Source: Ktedonobacterales bacterium (GTDB lineage Bacteria; Chloroflexota; Ktedonobacteria; Ktedonobacterales; JADMIN01). Taken from it: a stretch of 37,083 bases of DNA. The stretch's first letter is position 1; each line of letters opens with the position of its first letter. Location: positions 1 through 37,083 of the forward strand of contig JBDTAI010000209.1 in NCBI GenBank assembly GCA_039924685.1, written 5' to 3'. The notes under the pieces were generated by a model. It saw nothing but the letters and a program-made list of their open reading frames with translations. It did no database searches and was not told the origin of the DNA. Of the stretch, positions 3,328 through 14,136 are shown piece after piece. The translations under genes were made by a program, and so were the position numbers.

Positions 3328-3416
3328 GGGGCGGTGGTGAAATGGTAGACACAGCGGACTTAAAATCCGTTGCCGGCCAACCCGGCGTGGGGGTTCGAGT
3401 CCCCCCCGCCCTACCA
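3328..3416 (+). tRNA. tRNA-Leu (anticodon UAA), class II with long variable arm, CCA encoded
   Basis: Folded by hand. Acceptor GGGGCGG / CCGCCCT (G1-U72 wobble). Anticodon stem gcgga / tccgt with loop cuUAAaa. Long variable arm gttgccggccaacccggcg. T arm GGGGG-TTCGAGT-CCCCC. Discriminator A followed by CCA. Confidence 0.9.
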
Positions 3417-6703: not shown

Positions 6704-7609
6704 TCATGCCTCATCAGCTAGGACTTCGGCGATGGCGCGTCGGGCGATGTTGGCGAGGACAGGGTTGGTGTGCTGGTAGTAGGGCAGCGCGATCAGTCCG
6801 ATGGAGAGCGCCCAGCCGCGACCGCGCGCCCATGTCGCATCGTCAACCGCCAGCGCCGCACGGAAGACACGCCGGGTCTGAGCGGAGAAGAAGTTCCATG
6901 CGGGCATCAGGTCGCAGGCGGGTTCACCTACCCCCAGCGCGCCGAAGTCTATCACGGCGCTGATCCGGCCCTGCTCAACAAGCAGGTTGAGTGGGGAGAG
7001 GTCGCCATGAATCCAGACAGGCGGACCATTCCATGCGGGCGCTTTCAGGGCTGCCTCCCATGCGGCGCTCACTGCGTCGGTATCGAGCGCGCCTTCCAGT
7101 GAGGCAGTTGCCGCGCGAGTCTCAGCATCGCGCGTGGCAAGCGGTACGCCACGTGACGCGACTGGTGGCTCAGGGAGCGGCCAGTCCTTGGTAGCGATCT
7201 GGCGCAAGGCCGTGGTGAACTGCGCCAGATCACGCGCCGCCCGATCCTGGTCGGCTATCCGTGCGACGGTAGCGTTCTCGCCGGTGAGCCAGCGGTAGAT
7301 GGACCATCGCCAGGGATAGCCTTCGCCCGGCGCTCCCAGCGCGAGTGGCATAGGGATGGCCAGCGGCAGGTGTGGAGCAAGTCGCGGCAGCCAGCGTTGC
7401 TCTTTCTCCACATCCGCAACGGCCCAGTCAATGCGAGGCAGCCGCACGACCATGTTCTCGCCCAGCCGATAGAGCGCGTTGTCGGTCCCGGCGGAGGGAA
7501 CTGGCGCGATGGGCAGTTCCGCCCACTGGGGAAACTGCGCTGTGAGCAACCGACGCACAAGTGATGCGTCGGTATGCACTTCATCGTCGTGCATTTTGCT
7601 AGCGGACAT
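6704..7609 (-). CDS. Aminoglycoside/phosphotransferase (APH) family kinase-like protein
   Basis: Catalytic loop WIHGDLSPLNLL and the IDFG motif. The start overlaps the stop of the upstream fpg gene by 11 nt. Confidence 0.85.
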   Translation of the reverse strand: MSASKMHDDEVHTDASLVRRLLTAQFPQWAELPIAPVPSAGTDNALYRLGENMVVRLPRIDWAVADVEKEQRWLPRLAPHLPLAIPMPLALGAPGEGYPWRWSIYRWLTGENATVARIADQDRAARDLAQFTTALRQIATKDWPLPEPPVASRGVPLATRDAETRAATASLEGALDTDAVSAAWEAALKAPAWNGPPVWIHGDLSPLNLLVEQGRISAVIDFGALGVGEPACDLMPAWNFFSAQTRRVFRAALAVDDATWARGRGWALSIGLIALPYYQHTNPVLANIARRAIAEVLADEA

Positions 7610-8866: not shown

Positions 8867-10465
8867 ATGGCCGCTCAGCGGATACAGCCATCTTCCGGGA
8901 AGCAGAGATCGCGTTGTGGCGCGCTGCTGATCGCGCTTGTCGCGGTCCTCGCCGTCGCGCTGGCAGGCGTCGCGCTGGCCTACATCCACTTTGCGCCGCT
9001 GGCAGGTTTCGGCGTGTCATCCACGAAGACGCCGACGCCGCCTACCTATTCTCTCGTGGGTGGCGGGCGCTGTGTCACGCTGGGGTCGCATCCTACTGGG
9101 CCATACGCCAATGTGCAGGTCAGCCATGATAGCTTCCTTGCGCACAGTGAGCCAATGCTTGCCGAGAATCCGGCCAATCCGCTGCAACTGGTGGGCGGCT
9201 CCAAGTTCTTCACCAATCCAGCGAAGTATGCGTTCCAGATCGGCTACTTCTCTTCTTCGGATGGTGGCTGCACCTGGACCGACGGCGGATTGCTGCCGGG
9301 CTACGCCGACCGGGGGCGCGTCTCGGACATCACTATGGCGTTTGGCCCTTCGGGTCACGTCTATGCGCTTGTGCTGTACCTGGCAAAAGACTTCATAGAA
9401 AGCGGCATTGCAGTCTCGACCTCGACGGATGGCGGCAAGACGTTCGGCCAGCCGGTCGCTGTCTATGATAATCCCACAGGCGCCGTCTTTGGCGACAAGC
9501 CCTGGATTGCTGTGGACATGTCGCATGGGCCGCATCGTGGCGCCGTCTATGTCGCCTGGTCGTATGATACGGGTGCTCCCTGCGGCTATGGCAACTTCTG
9601 CATCCAGCATCTTGGCGTTGCGCGCTCGGTGGATGGCGCGCGCACATTCTCGCCAGTGCAGTTCACGGAGGGCAACGCGCCTTTCTGCACGAATGCTGTG
9701 CCGGGCCGGGCGCTTGGCGATACGCGCTGTGACAGCGTGCTGGGCGCGACGCCGGCGGTCGAGCCAGATGGCACACTTGCCATCGCCTACGCCTACTTCG
9801 ACCTGACCAGCGGCATTCAGGGGCGTCCGCTGATCCCGACGAGGCTGGTGGTGGTCACATCGCATGATGGCGGGCAGACATGGTCCACGCCCGTCCGCGC
9901 CGTAACGGTTCACGATACGCCACCCGTTGTCCCGCCCGATGACTACCGCGCATTTCCGCTGCCAGCCTTCGCCGCTGACCCTTCTACCAGCGGCAGGCTC
10001 TATCTTGCCTGGATGGATGAGCAGCAGGGGCAGAGCAATATCCTCGTCGCTACCTCACGCGACGATGGGCAAACGTGGTCTGCGCCGCTGCGAGTCAATG
10101 ACGGACCATCGGGCAGCGGGGCCACCAAAGCCGATAACGCCTCGCAGCCCGCGCTGGCGGTGGCGCCGGATGGCGTGGTCAGCGTCATCTTCTTCGATGC
10201 GCGCAACGATCCCACCCATCACCTGCTGGACCTCTACCTGACGCAATCGCGCGACCATGGGGCGAGTTTCACGTCGAACATCCGTGTGACGACGGTGAGC
10301 AGCGATCCTCGCGCGGGTGGGCCGCGTGATGAGGGTGGCCAGCTCTTCTTCGGTGACTATCAAGGGCTGGCGGCAGACAACGCCTTTGTCCACCCCTTCT
10401 GGAACGACACCCGCACCGGCAGTCAGCAGATCGAGACCGCCGCTCTCCCCAGCATCCAGCCATGA
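8867..10465 (+). CDS. Membrane-anchored BNR/Asp-box repeat protein (sialidase-like beta-propeller)
   Basis: N-terminal TM segment ALLIALVAVLAVALAGVALAYI. Five Asp-box-like motifs: SSDGGCTW, STDGGKTF, SHDGGQTW, SRDDGQTW, SRDHGASF. Confidence 0.85.
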   Translation: MAAQRIQPSSGKQRSRCGALLIALVAVLAVALAGVALAYIHFAPLAGFGVSSTKTPTPPTYSLVGGGRCVTLGSHPTGPYANVQVSHDSFLAHSEPMLAENPANPLQLVGGSKFFTNPAKYAFQIGYFSSSDGGCTWTDGGLLPGYADRGRVSDITMAFGPSGHVYALVLYLAKDFIESGIAVSTSTDGGKTFGQPVAVYDNPTGAVFGDKPWIAVDMSHGPHRGAVYVAWSYDTGAPCGYGNFCIQHLGVARSVDGARTFSPVQFTEGNAPFCTNAVPGRALGDTRCDSVLGATPAVEPDGTLAIAYAYFDLTSGIQGRPLIPTRLVVVTSHDGGQTWSTPVRAVTVHDTPPVVPPDDYRAFPLPAFAADPSTSGRLYLAWMDEQQGQSNILVATSRDDGQTWSAPLRVNDGPSGSGATKADNASQPALAVAPDGVVSVIFFDARNDPTHHLLDLYLTQSRDHGASFTSNIRVTTVSSDPRAGGPRDEGGQLFFGDYQGLAADNAFVHPFWNDTRTGSQQIETAALPSIQP

Positions 10466-10535
10466 CCGCCGACGTATCAGTGCAGGAGGAAATCGTAACT
10501 TCTTCATCACGAGGATTCACAAGTACCACATCCTC

Positions 10536-10564
10536 TTGCTTCTTGGATTGCTAGCTGTTATACT
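10536..10564 (+). promoter_or_regulatory. Near-consensus sigma70-type promoter of the low-GC islet
   Basis: TTGCTT (10536-10541), exact 17-nt spacer, TATACT (10559-10564). It lies ~90 nt upstream of the ATG at 10658. Confidence 0.5.
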
Positions 10565-10657
10565 CACTCCATTACTAGCGCGCGAGAGGTAGTTCAGCCT
10601 CACATATTCCTATTCTCTGTTTTGCACGTCCTTTGGTTTACGTTAGGACGGAATGAA

Positions 10658-11989
10658 ATGACGCAACCCTTGCACATCCCGCCAGAGCAGGAGGAACTGT
10701 TCCGGTTCACATTCAAGTCGCCCATTGATGATCACATTCGACGGTTGACGCCGGTTGAGTATGGACGGTTCATCTACTACCTTTTCCAACGAGATGGGCT
10801 ATACCATCCTGTGCTTGTCGATGGTCCAGGTGATGGTGGTGTGGACATCGAGTTGTATGCCCGTAATGGCGTCAATCCTGAACTGTGCGGTGTTGTGCAG
10901 TGCAAGCGATTCCTTCTTGAGAAAGTCACTCCCAACGACCTCGCGCCCGTCATTGTCGCCGCCAACATGGCAAAAATTACACGAAAGTATTGTTTTACGA
11001 CCTCTGGGTACACGCCCCCAGCGCGTGCTTCTGCTCGCAACAACGACGTCAAGCTATTTGACTCTGCTGACGTGCGATTCTGGATTCAAGACATAACGCG
11101 CCGCGAATCTTTAAGAACGCAGTCTCCTAATCTCCCAGACCTCGATAGCATGCCTATACCTATCATTTGTGTCACCAACAACAAGGGAGGGGTTGGCAAA
11201 ACCACACTTACTGGCAACTTGGCTGCTGCCTTTGCTACTGAGCAGCACAATGTTTTGGTTATTGACGCCGATCCACAAGGTCATTTAACCTCCTGGTTGA
11301 CAGATCAGCGACACAATGCTCCTGCGCTATCTCTACATGCCGTGCTGACACAAGACGTTCCCATTTATCCCCTTATGCAGAGAACAACAGAAAAAGGCGT
11401 TTGGATTCTCCCATCCACTCAGGAGTTGCATGAGCTTCCGGGGGGACATAATGCATGGACATTTGAGCGCAAACTAGCCCATGCGTTGGCGGCGCTACCA
11501 CTTTCTGATCCACCCATTCGCTATGTCCTAATCGATACTCCTCCTGGCTTGGGCTCCATAACGCGGTCAGCAATGCTTGCAGCCAAGTCGTTGCTGATAC
11601 CGCTGCAGCTTGAGGTGTTTTCGCTTGAAGGGCTAGATGCACTGTTGGGCTTTATTGTCCAGACCGAAACGATTCACCAGAAGAAACCGCTTCAGATATT
11701 AGGAGGAGTGGCAACACGCGTGGATATGCGCTTTCGCTGGGGGTTTCGGTTTCGTGATAGGTTTGATTTACAGAATCGCCCGCGCTTGCAGCAATCAGGG
11801 CTTACTGATGAGCAATTCTGGTGTGGGCTGTTGCGGGAGCGAGGGGAATACAAGAAATCGCAAGCCGAACACCAGTCTGTTCTTCAATATGCGCGTCGTT
11901 CTGATGCTGCCGATGACATCTGGCAGTTGGCACAGGAGGTAACACATCGTGTACCCATACTCACCCACCTTGATACCCGAATCACCTAG
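10658..11989 (+). CDS. Fusion protein: N-terminal Mrr-type restriction endonuclease (PD-(D/E)xK) domain + C-terminal ParA/MinD-type deviant Walker A ATPase
   Basis: Nuclease part: LTPVEYGRFIYYLF, GDGGVDIE, VVQCKRF (D...QxK as in Mrr), CFTTSGYTPPA, KLFDSADVRFWI. ATPase part: NNKGGVGKTT, VLVIDADPQG, YVLIDTPPGLG, C-terminal SVLQYARRSDAADDIWQLAQEV. ATG at 10658 with aggacgga upstream is preferred over the TTG at 10622. Confidence 0.85.
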   Translation: MTQPLHIPPEQEELFRFTFKSPIDDHIRRLTPVEYGRFIYYLFQRDGLYHPVLVDGPGDGGVDIELYARNGVNPELCGVVQCKRFLLEKVTPNDLAPVIVAANMAKITRKYCFTTSGYTPPARASARNNDVKLFDSADVRFWIQDITRRESLRTQSPNLPDLDSMPIPIICVTNNKGGVGKTTLTGNLAAAFATEQHNVLVIDADPQGHLTSWLTDQRHNAPALSLHAVLTQDVPIYPLMQRTTEKGVWILPSTQELHELPGGHNAWTFERKLAHALAALPLSDPPIRYVLIDTPPGLGSITRSAMLAAKSLLIPLQLEVFSLEGLDALLGFIVQTETIHQKKPLQILGGVATRVDMRFRWGFRFRDRFDLQNRPRLQQSGLTDEQFWCGLLRERGEYKKSQAEHQSVLQYARRSDAADDIWQLAQEVTHRVPILTHLDTRIT

Positions 11990-12488
11990 TGTTAGCGATT
12001 CAGATTTCGCCAGCGATGCGGTTGAGACCCACGTGCAGGCGATTCTCACCGAGTTAGAGGAACTCCCCTCTGACGTACAGTTGGCTGTCTACACACGCTT
12101 GCTGAGTGGACTGACAAACAAGCTCACGTCGACCTTAGTCAAGAATGCGCTGGCTGCCGCAAAGGTTGATCAGCAGACACCCAAGCCGAAAGGAACTATC
12201 CGCAAGGCCACTTCGGCAGGACAGAAAGCGACAACTGAGAGCGTGCCGCGCGCAAATTCGATGTTGCGCCAACTGAATGATCCTTTTGATCCCATAGAGG
12301 CATGGCGGCGATTCGGCGGTAGCGCCGCTGAGATGCTTGATGTTTTGCGTGAGGAACCACAAGGTGTTCTGGAAGCAATGCTGAGACATCACAATATGCC
12401 ACCTGGACCAAAGCCACGAGGCAAATCGCGAGAAAAACTGGCGGAAGCTATTGCTCTCAGATTGGAGCAACAGTTCCGGGGCGCCTAA
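11949..12488 (+). CDS. Hypothetical partner protein of the nuclease-ParA fusion (helical N-terminus, Lys/Thr-rich linker, helical C-terminus)
   Basis: 179-aa ORF with balanced, helix-like composition; the antisense ORF is Cys/Ser/Leu-rich junk. GTG 11949 overlaps the upstream gene by 41 nt; TTG 11970 is an alternative start. No motif recognised. Confidence 0.6.
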   Translation: MYPYSPTLIPESPSVSDSDFASDAVETHVQAILTELEELPSDVQLAVYTRLLSGLTNKLTSTLVKNALAAAKVDQQTPKPKGTIRKATSAGQKATTESVPRANSMLRQLNDPFDPIEAWRRFGGSAAEMLDVLREEPQGVLEAMLRHHNMPPGPKPRGKSREKLAEAIALRLEQQFRGA

Positions 12489-12635
12489 TACCAAGTTTGT
12501 CTGGGTTCTTGTAAAAGATTGGCGCCATTGGAGGAATCTCCACGTCTTGAGCCAACGTCAAGCTATAAGCACCTACCTCACACCGGGATAACACCTACCG
12601 TCATGGTACCTCAACAACTGTAAACGTCTGACAAC

Positions 12636-12674
12636 ATCAGCCCTCCACCTGCACAATACAAGCGGAGGGCTGAT
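12636..12674. terminator. Hairpin between the convergent islet operon and lpd
   Basis: 11-bp perfect stem atcagccctcc / ggagggctgat with a 17-nt loop. Confidence 0.55.
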
Positions 12675-12699
12675 ATGTTCGGTTGTATTGTGGCGCTAG

Positions 12700-14136
12700 C
12701 TACCGGCGGGCAGCGGCAGCCGACCGCTGGAAGATGTGGACGGCGCGGCCCTCGGCGGCCAGCGTGGCCTCACGCAGCGCCTCGCTATAGGTCGGGTGCG
12801 GGTGGATGGTGGCGATCACCTCATCCGCCGTCAGCTCGGCGCGCATCGCCAGCGAGAACTCGGTGATCAGGTTGGTGGCGTCCGGGCCAAAGATCGCCGC
12901 GCCCAGAATCTCGCCATACTCGCCGAGGATCACTTTGGTGAAGCCCTCGGTTTCACCGGTCGCCAGCGCCTTGCCGTTCGCCACCCAGGGGAACTTGTCG
13001 GCGCGCACATTGCCACTGCGTTCACGCGCCTGTCGCTCCGTCAAGCCGACCGAGGCGATCTCCGGGAAGGTGAAGATCGGGCGCGGCACGATGTTGTAAT
13101 CCATCACGGCGTCGTGGCCCAGCGCATGCTCGGCGGCCAGCTCGCCCTCCATCATGGCGACGTGCGCCAGCCAGGTCTTGCCCACCAGATCGCCGATGGC
13201 ATAGACGCCCGGCAGGTTGGTTTGCAGGTGATCATCGGCCACTACGCGCCCGCGATCCATCGCCAGCCCAGCGCGGATCAGGCCGTCGAGTCCGGCGGGG
13301 TTCGCCTTGCGCCCGACCGCCACCAGCACATACTCGGCGTCAAATGCCTTTTGCTGGCCGTCGCTGGCCGTCGCCGTCACGCGCTTCCGGCCATCGGCGT
13401 CGGCGATGGACTCCACCTTCGCGCCGACCGCAATCTCCACGCCGCGCTTGCTGAGTGAGCGGGTGAGCGCCTGGCTCACCTCTTCATCCTCGTTGGCGAT
13501 GATGGCAGGCAGCATCTCGACAATCGTAACCTTTGTTCCCAGCGCATTGAACATGCAGGCAAGCTCGACGGCGATTACTCCGCCGCCAATACAGACCAGG
13601 CTTTCAGGAACCTTCGGCATATTCATCGCGTCGTCGCTGAAGATCACATTGCGCCCATCCAGGCCAGGGAACGGCGGGGTGATCGGCACAGAGCCGTTGG
13701 CGAGGATCAGCTTGCCCGTTTCGAGTTCCTGCGTCGTGCCGTCTTTCAGGGTCACGCGCACGCGGTTGGGCGCCAGCGTCTCGGCGCTGCCCTCGAAGAT
13801 GGCGACCTTGTTGGCCTTGAGCAACTGCGCCACGCCGCCGGTAAGTTGCTTCACCACCTTGTCCTTGAAGGCGACGGCCACGCTCATATCCAGCGTTGGC
13901 TCCGCATTCAACTTGATGCCGAGCTTGTCGAGTTCGCGCAGTTCGGCGTAGATTTGGGCGATGTGCAGCAACGCCTTCGAGGGGATGCAGCCCACGTTGA
14001 GGCATGTACCGCCGATATACTGCTTCTCGACGATGCCCACCCGCGCGCCAAGCTGCGCCGCGCGGATGGCGGCGACATAGCCACCGGGTCCCGCGCCGAT
14101 CACCAGCACGTCGAACTGCGAATTTTCGTTTGCCAC
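12700..14136 (-). CDS. lpdA: Dihydrolipoyl dehydrogenase (E3 component)
   Basis: FDVLVIGAGPGGY FAD fold and the redox disulfide GGTCLNVGCIPSK. GTG start at 14136 with GAGGAG 6 nt upstream. The 47-aa upstream extension in the ORF track has no Lpd-like sequence. Confidence 0.93.
   Translation of the reverse strand: MANENSQFDVLVIGAGPGGYVAAIRAAQLGARVGIVEKQYIGGTCLNVGCIPSKALLHIAQIYAELRELDKLGIKLNAEPTLDMSVAVAFKDKVVKQLTGGVAQLLKANKVAIFEGSAETLAPNRVRVTLKDGTTQELETGKLILANGSVPITPPFPGLDGRNVIFSDDAMNMPKVPESLVCIGGGVIAVELACMFNALGTKVTIVEMLPAIIANEDEEVSQALTRSLSKRGVEIAVGAKVESIADADGRKRVTATASDGQQKAFDAEYVLVAVGRKANPAGLDGLIRAGLAMDRGRVVADDHLQTNLPGVYAIGDLVGKTWLAHVAMMEGELAAEHALGHDAVMDYNIVPRPIFTFPEIASVGLTERQARERSGNVRADKFPWVANGKALATGETEGFTKVILGEYGEILGAAIFGPDATNLITEFSLAMRAELTADEVIATIHPHPTYSEALREATLAAEGRAVHIFQRSAAAARR

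Follow-up and report, generated by a model that had tools for sequence, protein, structure and literature searches.

Defence and toxin-antitoxin (TA) genes, like restriction-modification (R-M) units, are known from hot spots between core genes, where the flanks are conserved to the base, the cargo differs and no integrase is present. In the defence and TA hot spots this cargo is small, richer in AT and of the nuclease, nucleoside triphosphatase (NTPase) or TA type. According to Kobayashi and co-workers, R-M units reportedly carry no mobility genes, yet they insert or substitute between genes that are conserved. Long target duplications have been reported for such units. An islet of 2234 bp (positions 10466-12699, about 51% guanine plus cytosine (GC)) on a contig from a Ktedonobacterales bacterium resembles these sites in its flanks, its cargo and its lack of an integrase. 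The contig (C209; JBDTAI010000209.1 of assembly GCA_039924685.1) was analysed over its whole length of 37,083 nucleotides, referred to below as the window. The islet fills the whole intergenic space between two convergent genes, one for a BNR/Asp-box protein (BNR) and the other for dihydrolipoyl dehydrogenase (lpd), and holds two genes, gene 1 and gene 2, that together form the cassette. Unlike R-M units, it has neither a target duplication nor a methyltransferase, and no catalogued defence system matches it. A related copy in another genome, G060, is accompanied by a diverged 215-bp duplication of the end of the target gene that is reminiscent of the long target duplications of R-M units (see below). 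We consider, with a probability of about 0.75, that the islet is an operon of two accessory genes that is exchanged horizontally, and that the site it occupies, where the 3' ends of BNR and lpd converge, is a variable hot spot.

Like a classical integrative island, the islet is atypical in composition, has abrupt borders and varies between presence and absence among relatives. It differs in being only 2.2 kb long and in lacking an integrase, att-like repeats and an adjacent tRNA; none of the marks of such an island (a recombinase gene, flanking repeats, adjacency to a tRNA or tmRNA) is found. Among the related copies only one (L200) lies within an island of this kind and only one (L016) adjoins a tRNA-Glu gene.

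As to the cargo, three groups of described systems come close. ParA and MinD proteins form ATP-dependent sandwich dimers and bind DNA non-specifically, and their hydrolysis is triggered by a partner protein. Type I ParA/Soj-ParB operons, like the islet, combine a gene for a Walker-type, Soj-like ATPase with a small, coupled partner gene downstream of it. However, gene 1 also encodes an N-terminal PD-(D/E)xK nuclease with conserved catalytic residues, its partner is unrelated to ParB or to ribbon-helix-helix (RHH) proteins, parS-like repeats are missing, and the cassette lies on the chromosome, has a patchy distribution and is missing from plasmid records. The type IV modification-dependent restriction endonuclease Mrr has the same Mrr_cat domain with its D...QxK signature; gene 1 differs in lacking the Mrr_N reader, in having an N-terminal nuclease fused to ParA and in needing, or at least keeping, a partner gene. 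Coupling of an NTPase to a nuclease effector is also a feature of OLD/Gabija GajA, Septu PtuAB and Lamassu LmuA-Mrr. These use an ABC or AAA ATPase, whereas gene 1 has the deviant Walker A ParA/MinD dimerising switch and gives no significant match to their profiles. An islet of OLD type and of the same style is found elsewhere in the same genome (contig C449). The cargo is neither a system listed in PADLOC, nor Mrr proper, nor type I ParABS.

Composition and limits of the islet

Across about 10450-12700 the sliding GC profile of the window drops from 0.63-0.68 to 0.49-0.55, and it recovers within one 150-nucleotide step. The assembly is a metagenome-assembled genome (MAG) of 3.92 Mb in 564 contigs, about 80% complete. 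Its mean GC is 0.624 (standard deviation 0.021, 2.2-kb windows) against 0.514 for segment 10466-12680, and only 0.05% of the genome windows are as low. The GC content at third codon positions (GC3) is 0.515 in gene 1 and 0.539 in gene 2, versus 0.73-0.82 in four flanking genes. When set against the 2849 open reading frames (ORFs) of the genome with at least 150 amino acids (mean 0.72, standard deviation 0.068), these values correspond to z = -3.0 and z = -2.7, respectively, and place both genes within the lowest 1.3-2.1%. The tetranucleotide L1 distance between islet and genome is 0.476 as compared with 0.209 +/- 0.031, about 8.8 standard deviations above the mean. It is matched by only one of 2946 windows, and the islet is the second most extreme outlier in the assembly. 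By GC, GC3 and tetranucleotide usage alike, the islet has the composition expected of horizontally acquired DNA.

A sequence-only reading of the window had proposed, from hand counts of GC, a low-GC islet with sharp edges and with codons ending more often in A or T. The hand counts are confirmed by computation and both proposals are borne out, the GC3 deviation being significant. Its location, given as 10500-12675, is right but the limits are slightly wider. They can be fixed exactly by comparison with L119, a contig from a close relative in which the sequence between the two stop codons has no similarity to the window: position 10466, directly after the BNR stop, is the first base of the islet, and 12699, directly before the lpd stop, is its last. 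Together with its ends it is present in one copy in the genome.

The BNR-lpd site in close relatives

The comparison of the site rests on two close metagenome contigs, L119 (Ga0102924_1009749) and L116. L119 is syntenic with the window, having fpg and BNR on the left and lpd, an AI-2E permease gene and the citrate synthase gene on the right, at 81-86% nucleotide identity. The BNR gene (8867-10465, + strand) encodes a sialidase-like BNR/Asp-box protein of 532 amino acids (Pfam BNR_2, 2e-12); it is 84% identical to its L119 counterpart in amino acids and 85.5% in nucleotides, up to base 10465. On the other side, lpd (12700-14130, - strand; about 476 amino acids; Pfam Pyr_redox_2, 3e-70) shows 95% amino acid identity to P0156 of L116 and 93% to L119, with a nucleotide identity of 0.85-0.92 right to 12700. 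Similarity between the window and L119 stops at 10465 and restarts at 12700, and the two stop codons are thus the left and right breakpoints of homology.

Between the same stop codons L119 carries 1728 bp (L119:2303-4030) that are unrelated to the islet. This cargo, whose GC of 0.53-0.60 also lies below that of its flanks, encodes a DUF6883 protein (147 amino acids, with a Gln/Glu/Thr-Gly repeat tail), a DUF4926 protein and an 86-amino acid ORF. It further includes a hicB-like gene and a truncated, 44-amino acid hicA-like gene, the HicB and HicA matches being weak (E ~5e-4, under the Pfam cut-offs). L116 has the same hicAB beside lpd and then reaches its contig end. In these close relatives the flanks are conserved, other cargo is found at or next to the same stops, and the cassette is absent from the site. 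Because the flanks are conserved up to the stop codons and the cargo between them differs, the convergent BNR-lpd intergenic space appears, from these alignments, to be a cargo-swapping hot spot, which can be occupied by the cassette or, alternatively, by genes of the TA type.

The cassette had been thought to be dropped between convergent core genes, and relatives were to be searched for BNR and lpd standing next to each other without it. Acquisition at BNR-lpd is upheld and the cassette is indeed missing from the relatives. What they show, however, is other cargo, the 1728 bp of L119, and no empty junction, which points to replacement.

The identity between the window and L119 is uniform to the junctions, and no rise in flank divergence, which would be a trace of recombinational import, is seen there. 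Other genera of the same family are uninformative, as BNR and lpd never occur on one contig and no flanking genes are in common. The window, L119 and L116 differ from one another to nearly the same extent (83.7-85.9% identity). Across 4.1 kb, site patterns speak slightly for a grouping of the window with L119, while the rooted lpd tree favours one of L116 with L119 (support 0.82).

Two further observations concern the lpd side. The ORF of lpd stays open to 14277, but the long version (525 amino acids) is probably over-extended, its homologues having 476-479 amino acids and starts near 14130. Segment 14047-14450, which spans the 5' end of lpd and the divergent lpd/permease control region, is 0.57-0.64 identical to L119, whereas the neighbouring genes reach 0.85-0.95.

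Distribution of the cassette

Homologues of both genes occur in other Ktedonobacterales assemblies at 50-68% identity, always adjacent to each other. With one genome sampled per species, four of the 169 Ktedonobacterales genomes contain gene 2, namely G000 (the genome of the window), G060, G036 (a divergent copy) and G016 (a remnant). It is found in one of the 13 genomes of genus g4 and in none of the 112 of family f3. The N-terminal domain of gene 1 is nearly confined to the order, where nine other genomes have it, versus a single hit, of different architecture, elsewhere in the phylum sample. At least 5000 plasmid records match some part of the fusion encoded by gene 1; none of them covers 80% or more of it, nor does any phage record.

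The distribution is as patchy as that of an acquired islet should be, nine loci displaying nine different contexts. L016 has RNase J and tRNA-Glu genes on one side and a nitroreductase gene on the other. L017 lies near an NB-ARC STAND NTPase gene and beside acetyltransferase genes. At L018-L020 a response regulator gene is found on one side and adk-secY with ribosomal protein genes on the other, and L199 and L202 are surrounded by metabolic genes. The L200 copy keeps company with an integrase, an HTH_17 protein, a DDE transposase, a serine recombinase and a reverse transcriptase. At L016 the cassette starts about 215 bp after tRNA-Glu(TTC) (L016:2770-2846); no tRNA is near any of the ten other loci that were inspected, and linkage to a tRNA was rejected as a rule with one of 11 related loci adjoining one. 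In GCA_036558965.1, a Ktedonobacterales MAG, the cassette and the lpd orthologue (76% amino acid identity) are about 5.4 kb apart (L018/L020, 1156-2586 and 8001-9810) in another arrangement. This proximity is probably a coincidence.

An empty site is available for the G060 copy. The space measures 23-138 bp in three congeners (G003, G059 and G061) versus 4.8 kb in G060, where the insert is made up of an insertion sequence (IS) that recurs elsewhere in the genome at 99% identity, 215 bp copied from the 3' end of a neighbouring gene, an IS630-like fragment and the cassette. The 3' end of this gene, which encodes 410 amino acids, is found on both sides of the cassette as a direct duplication (L113 (G060:C1), about 7299-7514 and 10445-10660), with an identity of only 88% between the copies. 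Such divergence suggests that a long target duplication took place long ago, or that one copy came in with the cassette from another genome.

The G016 copy is decayed (L115 (G016:C38), 1837-2680). Its gene 1 has lost residues from about 121 to 265 and from 300 to 386, and its gene 2 ends after about 78 amino acids. The GC of this remnant is still 0.43-0.56, that of the host 0.60-0.70. The cassette family is rare and patchy in Ktedonobacterales, it has a different context in each genome, and it decays by deletion. Its presence in 4 of 169 genomes, its absence from the site in L119 and L116 and the change of context from locus to locus all bear out the earlier proposal of a horizontally acquired cassette.

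Distant paralogues of the whole operon are found at L206 (G036:C54, 4974-6801) and L208 (G023:C4, 4299-6108), with 24-32% identity in gene 1. These, too, are low-GC islets, of about 2.1 kb, and each has a partner of 165-168 amino acids whose C-terminal region is similar by eye. Several Ktedonobacterales have two or three such operons per genome.

Meaning of the GC deficit

At the nine independent loci the cassette has a GC of 0.51-0.58 and the flanks 0.57-0.68. The offset between cassette and host averages -9.8 points and ranges from -6.4 to -13.4 (n = 9). Cassette GC follows host GC (r = 0.88, slope 0.54), which for nine related loci is indicative only. Among the genomes of the order, no low-GC lineage was identified that could have donated the cassette. 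In general, mobile and accessory DNA has a higher AT content than the genomes of its hosts, and bacterial mutation is biased towards AT. Since every host shows the deficit, no low-GC donor is found and mobile DNA tends to AT-richness under AT-biased mutation, we infer that the deficit is permanent in a gene pool that keeps moving within the high-GC Ktedonobacterales without ever being fully assimilated, and that it does not betray a recent import from an AT-rich species. The low GC had been taken as a signal of acquisition. This holds insofar as the cassette belongs to a mobile gene pool, but there is no sign of a recent AT-rich donor.

The genome of the window contains a single stronger outlier, at C449:2400-4500, with a GC of 0.44 (range 0.43-0.48) versus 0.62-0.65 (L204 2367-4392, - strand). 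It carries a gene for an OLD-family ATPase (AAA_15/AAA_21) with a TOPRIM nuclease, apparently split into ORFs of 148 and 545 amino acids. It is wedged between the gene of a 2-oxoacid dehydrogenase E2 acyltransferase and that of a peptidase S58, and has no mobility gene. Being of the same style and in the same genome, this islet supports the idea that the deficit is a trait of a mobile pool.

Gene 1 encodes an Mrr nuclease-ParA fusion

Gene 1 (10658-11989, + strand) encodes a protein of 443 amino acids that starts with the ATG at 10658, within an ORF open from a TTG at 10622. A Shine-Dalgarno sequence, AGGACGGA, lies upstream of this ATG. The N-terminus is an Mrr_cat PD-(D/E)xK nuclease domain (Pfam, 5e-11) and the remainder a complete, Soj-like ParA/MinD ATPase (Pfam AAA_31, 5e-33). 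An Mrr_N winged-helix domain is not detected with Pfam.

Alignment of 28 homologues (37-68% identity) shows no variation at D59, D63 and E65 of the nuclease and hardly any at Q81 and K83. Gene 1 hence displays the D...(Q/E)xK signature of the Mrr catalytic domain. In the ATPase half the residues of the Walker A, A' and B motifs (K176 and K181; D203 and D205; D293) are invariant in the same set, as are the motifs KGGVGKTT, IDxDPQ and LIDTPP. The Walker A motif is of the deviant type that characterises the ParA ATPases of ParABS systems.

The AlphaFold2 model of gene 1 has a mean predicted local distance difference test (pLDDT) of 88.5 and a predicted template modelling score (pTM) of 0.89, and such a pTM predicts that the two domains are packed compactly in a fixed arrangement. 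When compared with Foldseek, the ATPase half matches Soj/ParA structures with a template modelling (TM) score of 0.87. The match to NCBIfam ParA_partition, at 91 bits, is below the cut-off of 180 bits. In PADLOC-DB 2.0 no significant match to gene 1 is found, the best being PDC-M28B (8e-5) over 40 residues that comprise the Walker A only; LmuA matches the Mrr domain weakly (E = 2e-3). A contig scan with patterns that amounted to the generic ParA Walker A motif yielded nothing but ordinary ParA genes of other phyla. Literature searches retrieved no description of an Mrr_cat-ParA fusion. The fusion with its partner is an uncatalogued combination of domains, and the cargo of the islet is uncharacterised.

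Gene 2 and the operon

Gene 2 (11949-12488, + strand) encodes a protein of 179 amino acids. It has a GTG start preceded by the Shine-Dalgarno sequence AGGAGGT and overlaps gene 1 by 41 nucleotides. The two genes thus form one + strand operon, as expected of the two-gene cassette that had been proposed, and their arrangement indicates that this operon is intact and translationally coupled.

The gene-2 product is all-helical. It contains a basic linker that is disordered, and its C-terminal domain is conserved; the pLDDT of the AlphaFold2 model is 72 overall and about 90 in this domain. It has no match in Pfam, NCBIfam, PADLOC, PHROG or the sequences of the Protein Data Bank (PDB), nor among PDB folds with Foldseek. 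Specifically, no ParB, RHH or helix-turn-helix (HTH) domain is matched, and gene 2 does not qualify as a partner of the ParB type, with HTH and ParB-N, or of the RHH type. Relaxed Pfam scans of 28 members gave noise only and were discarded as a means of identifying the family. Gene 2 belongs to no known family. Its own family consists of 34 clusters among 1.84 billion representative proteins. The homologues cover 99% of its length and always adjoin gene-1 homologues, and this pairing is kept across deep divergence, including the paralogues with only 24-32% identity. One distant homologue of the C-terminal domain is part of a protein with weak matches to SAP and Rho_N (DNA/RNA-binding).

Mobility signatures and non-coding parts

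The islet contains only the two genes, neither of them a recombinase, and no integrase or transposase ORF is present. In a repeat search of the window, neither direct nor inverted repeats were found to bracket 10466 and 12699. Tandem repeats are missing in and next to the islet, where there are only short repeats at chance level. The sole tRNA in the window (3328-3416) lies 7 kb off and none flanks the islet. No IS was found beside it, and no IS remnants or repeats in its non-coding ends. Rfam yields no non-coding RNA match within it. These results agree with the sequence-only reading, which had seen no integrase, transposase or flanking direct or inverted repeats.

The islet begins with an AT-rich leader of 192 nucleotides and ends with a trailer of 211 nucleotides. 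A putative promoter of the sigma-70 type, TTGCTT-17 nucleotides-TATACT, was spotted by eye in the leader (10536-10564, + strand). Its first hexamer matches TTGACA at only three of six positions, and the consensus promoter scan, for which this hexamer is under the cut-off, does not report it. The regions upstream of eight homologous cassettes do not align and share no conserved non-coding end. Between the converging gene 2 and lpd, inverted-repeat search and fold energy reveal a hairpin with 16-bp arms (12636-12674) that has no clear U-tract. Its fold energy is -27.8 kcal/mol for the + strand and -35.6 kcal/mol for the - strand (z = -5.3), and it is not scored as an intrinsic terminator by the terminator scan. 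The hairpin belongs to the islet and not to the conserved flank, its counterpart being absent from L119 and L116. Possibly it serves as a shared terminator of gene 2 and lpd. With respect to the initial claim that the islet encloses a promoter and a shared terminator hairpin, the hairpin is real, the promoter is plausible by eye only and the role as terminator is possible only.

Competing explanations

Two explanations dispense with transfer altogether, and we regard both as very improbable. The islet might be core DNA, vertically inherited, whose low GC reflects local selection or the level of expression. The covariation of cassette GC with host GC is what long residence would produce, and the islet has no mobility signature. 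This view is contradicted by the comparison of the site, for the closest relatives have other genes at the syntenic position; it also fails to account for a family confined to 4 of 169 genomes of the order in ever different contexts, and for the G060 copy, which is an insertion relative to three congeners. Equally improbable is an artefact of assembly or binning, that is, foreign reads joined chimerically into a contig of the MAG. The MAG is fragmented and about one-fifth incomplete, which leaves some room for such errors. Yet both flanks lie on one 37-kb contig in the order and orientation of the independent contig L119, the junctions fall exactly at two stop codons and enclose an intact operon with its own leader and hairpin, and eight further independent assemblies, some of whose contigs are complete or nearly so, contain homologous islets with equally sharp edges.

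An unlikely explanation, if less remote than these two, concerns what the operon does. It could be a partition module of the parA-parB kind, left by or serving an integrated plasmid or element, in which the Mrr-like domain would be a DNA-binding head that replaces the HTH of type Ia ParA and gene 2 a centromere-binding adaptor. A Soj-like ParA with intact ATPase motifs, followed by a small, translationally coupled partner with a basic disordered linker, would suit this role, as would the SAP/Rho_N matches in the protein that carries the distant homologue of the gene-2 C-terminal domain and the position of the L200 copy in a region rich in mobile elements. Conservation of the catalytic D, D, E and QxK in 28 homologues that are only 37-68% identical, however, is not expected of a mere binding domain. 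Iterated parS-like or tandem repeats are found neither in the islet nor next to it, and gene 2 has no ParB, RHH or HTH match. At most loci the cassette is a stand-alone 2-kb islet between housekeeping genes, with no replication or transfer genes, and plasmid records that would carry the fusion are lacking.

Some of the evidence also weighs against an accessory, horizontally exchanged operon in a variable hot spot. The islet is not marked by a mobility gene, a target duplication, a terminal repeat or a tRNA. The fusion is on no phage or plasmid record, and no known defence family matches. A parA gene with a small partner is also how partition operons are laid out. Finally, the window, L119 and L116 form a near-trichotomy, in which the cassette may have replaced hicAB or hicAB the cassette.

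Possible arrival and function of the cassette

We propose that the exchanged cassette arrived by recombination that did not involve a site-specific recombinase of its own. This could have been a homologous exchange, through the conserved flanks, with a strain that already carried the cassette. Alternatively, the insertion may have been illegitimate or IS-assisted, as at the G060 and L200 loci. More speculatively, the break for insertion might be made by the cassette's own nuclease.

As regards function, ATP-driven dimerisation of the gene-1 protein on DNA would juxtapose two Mrr-type PD-(D/E)xK domains and thereby create a nuclease competent for cutting. The gene-2 protein may stimulate hydrolysis, or it may target or restrain the ATPase, in the manner of ParB, MinE or an antitoxin. 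Gene 1 would then be an ATP-gated nuclease and gene 2 its regulator, and the two together a module of the defence or addiction type. This proposal, drawn from domain content and predicted structures, seems to us about evenly balanced; it is put forward because the hot spot is also occupied by TA genes, the distribution is patchy, the cassettes turn over and the operon combines a nuclease with an NTPase. More tentative, and in our opinion rather doubtful in its full extent, is the generalisation that the fusion and its partner of 165-180 amino acids constitute a new, Ktedonobacterales-restricted two-gene family for anti-invader defence or genome addiction. In such a family the ParA switch would gate the nuclease, and the operon would spread into intergenic hot spots as a bare 2-kb unit without a recombinase, possibly aided by its own nuclease, which would make the break, with a stable GC deficit of about 10 points in every host.

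As a compositional islet the segment is ordinary and follows a textbook pattern; the novelty resides in the cargo. A family-wide deficit with no low-GC donor is also a caution that transfers cannot be dated from GC alone. For the poorly studied soil lineage to which the window belongs, the site provides a hot spot of cargo swapping between two convergent core genes whose limits are located to the base. In the window it carries a ParA/MinD switch coupled to an Mrr nuclease, a cargo that is missing from catalogues of defence systems as well as from plasmids and phages, which makes it a candidate for a new mechanism of immunity or addiction.

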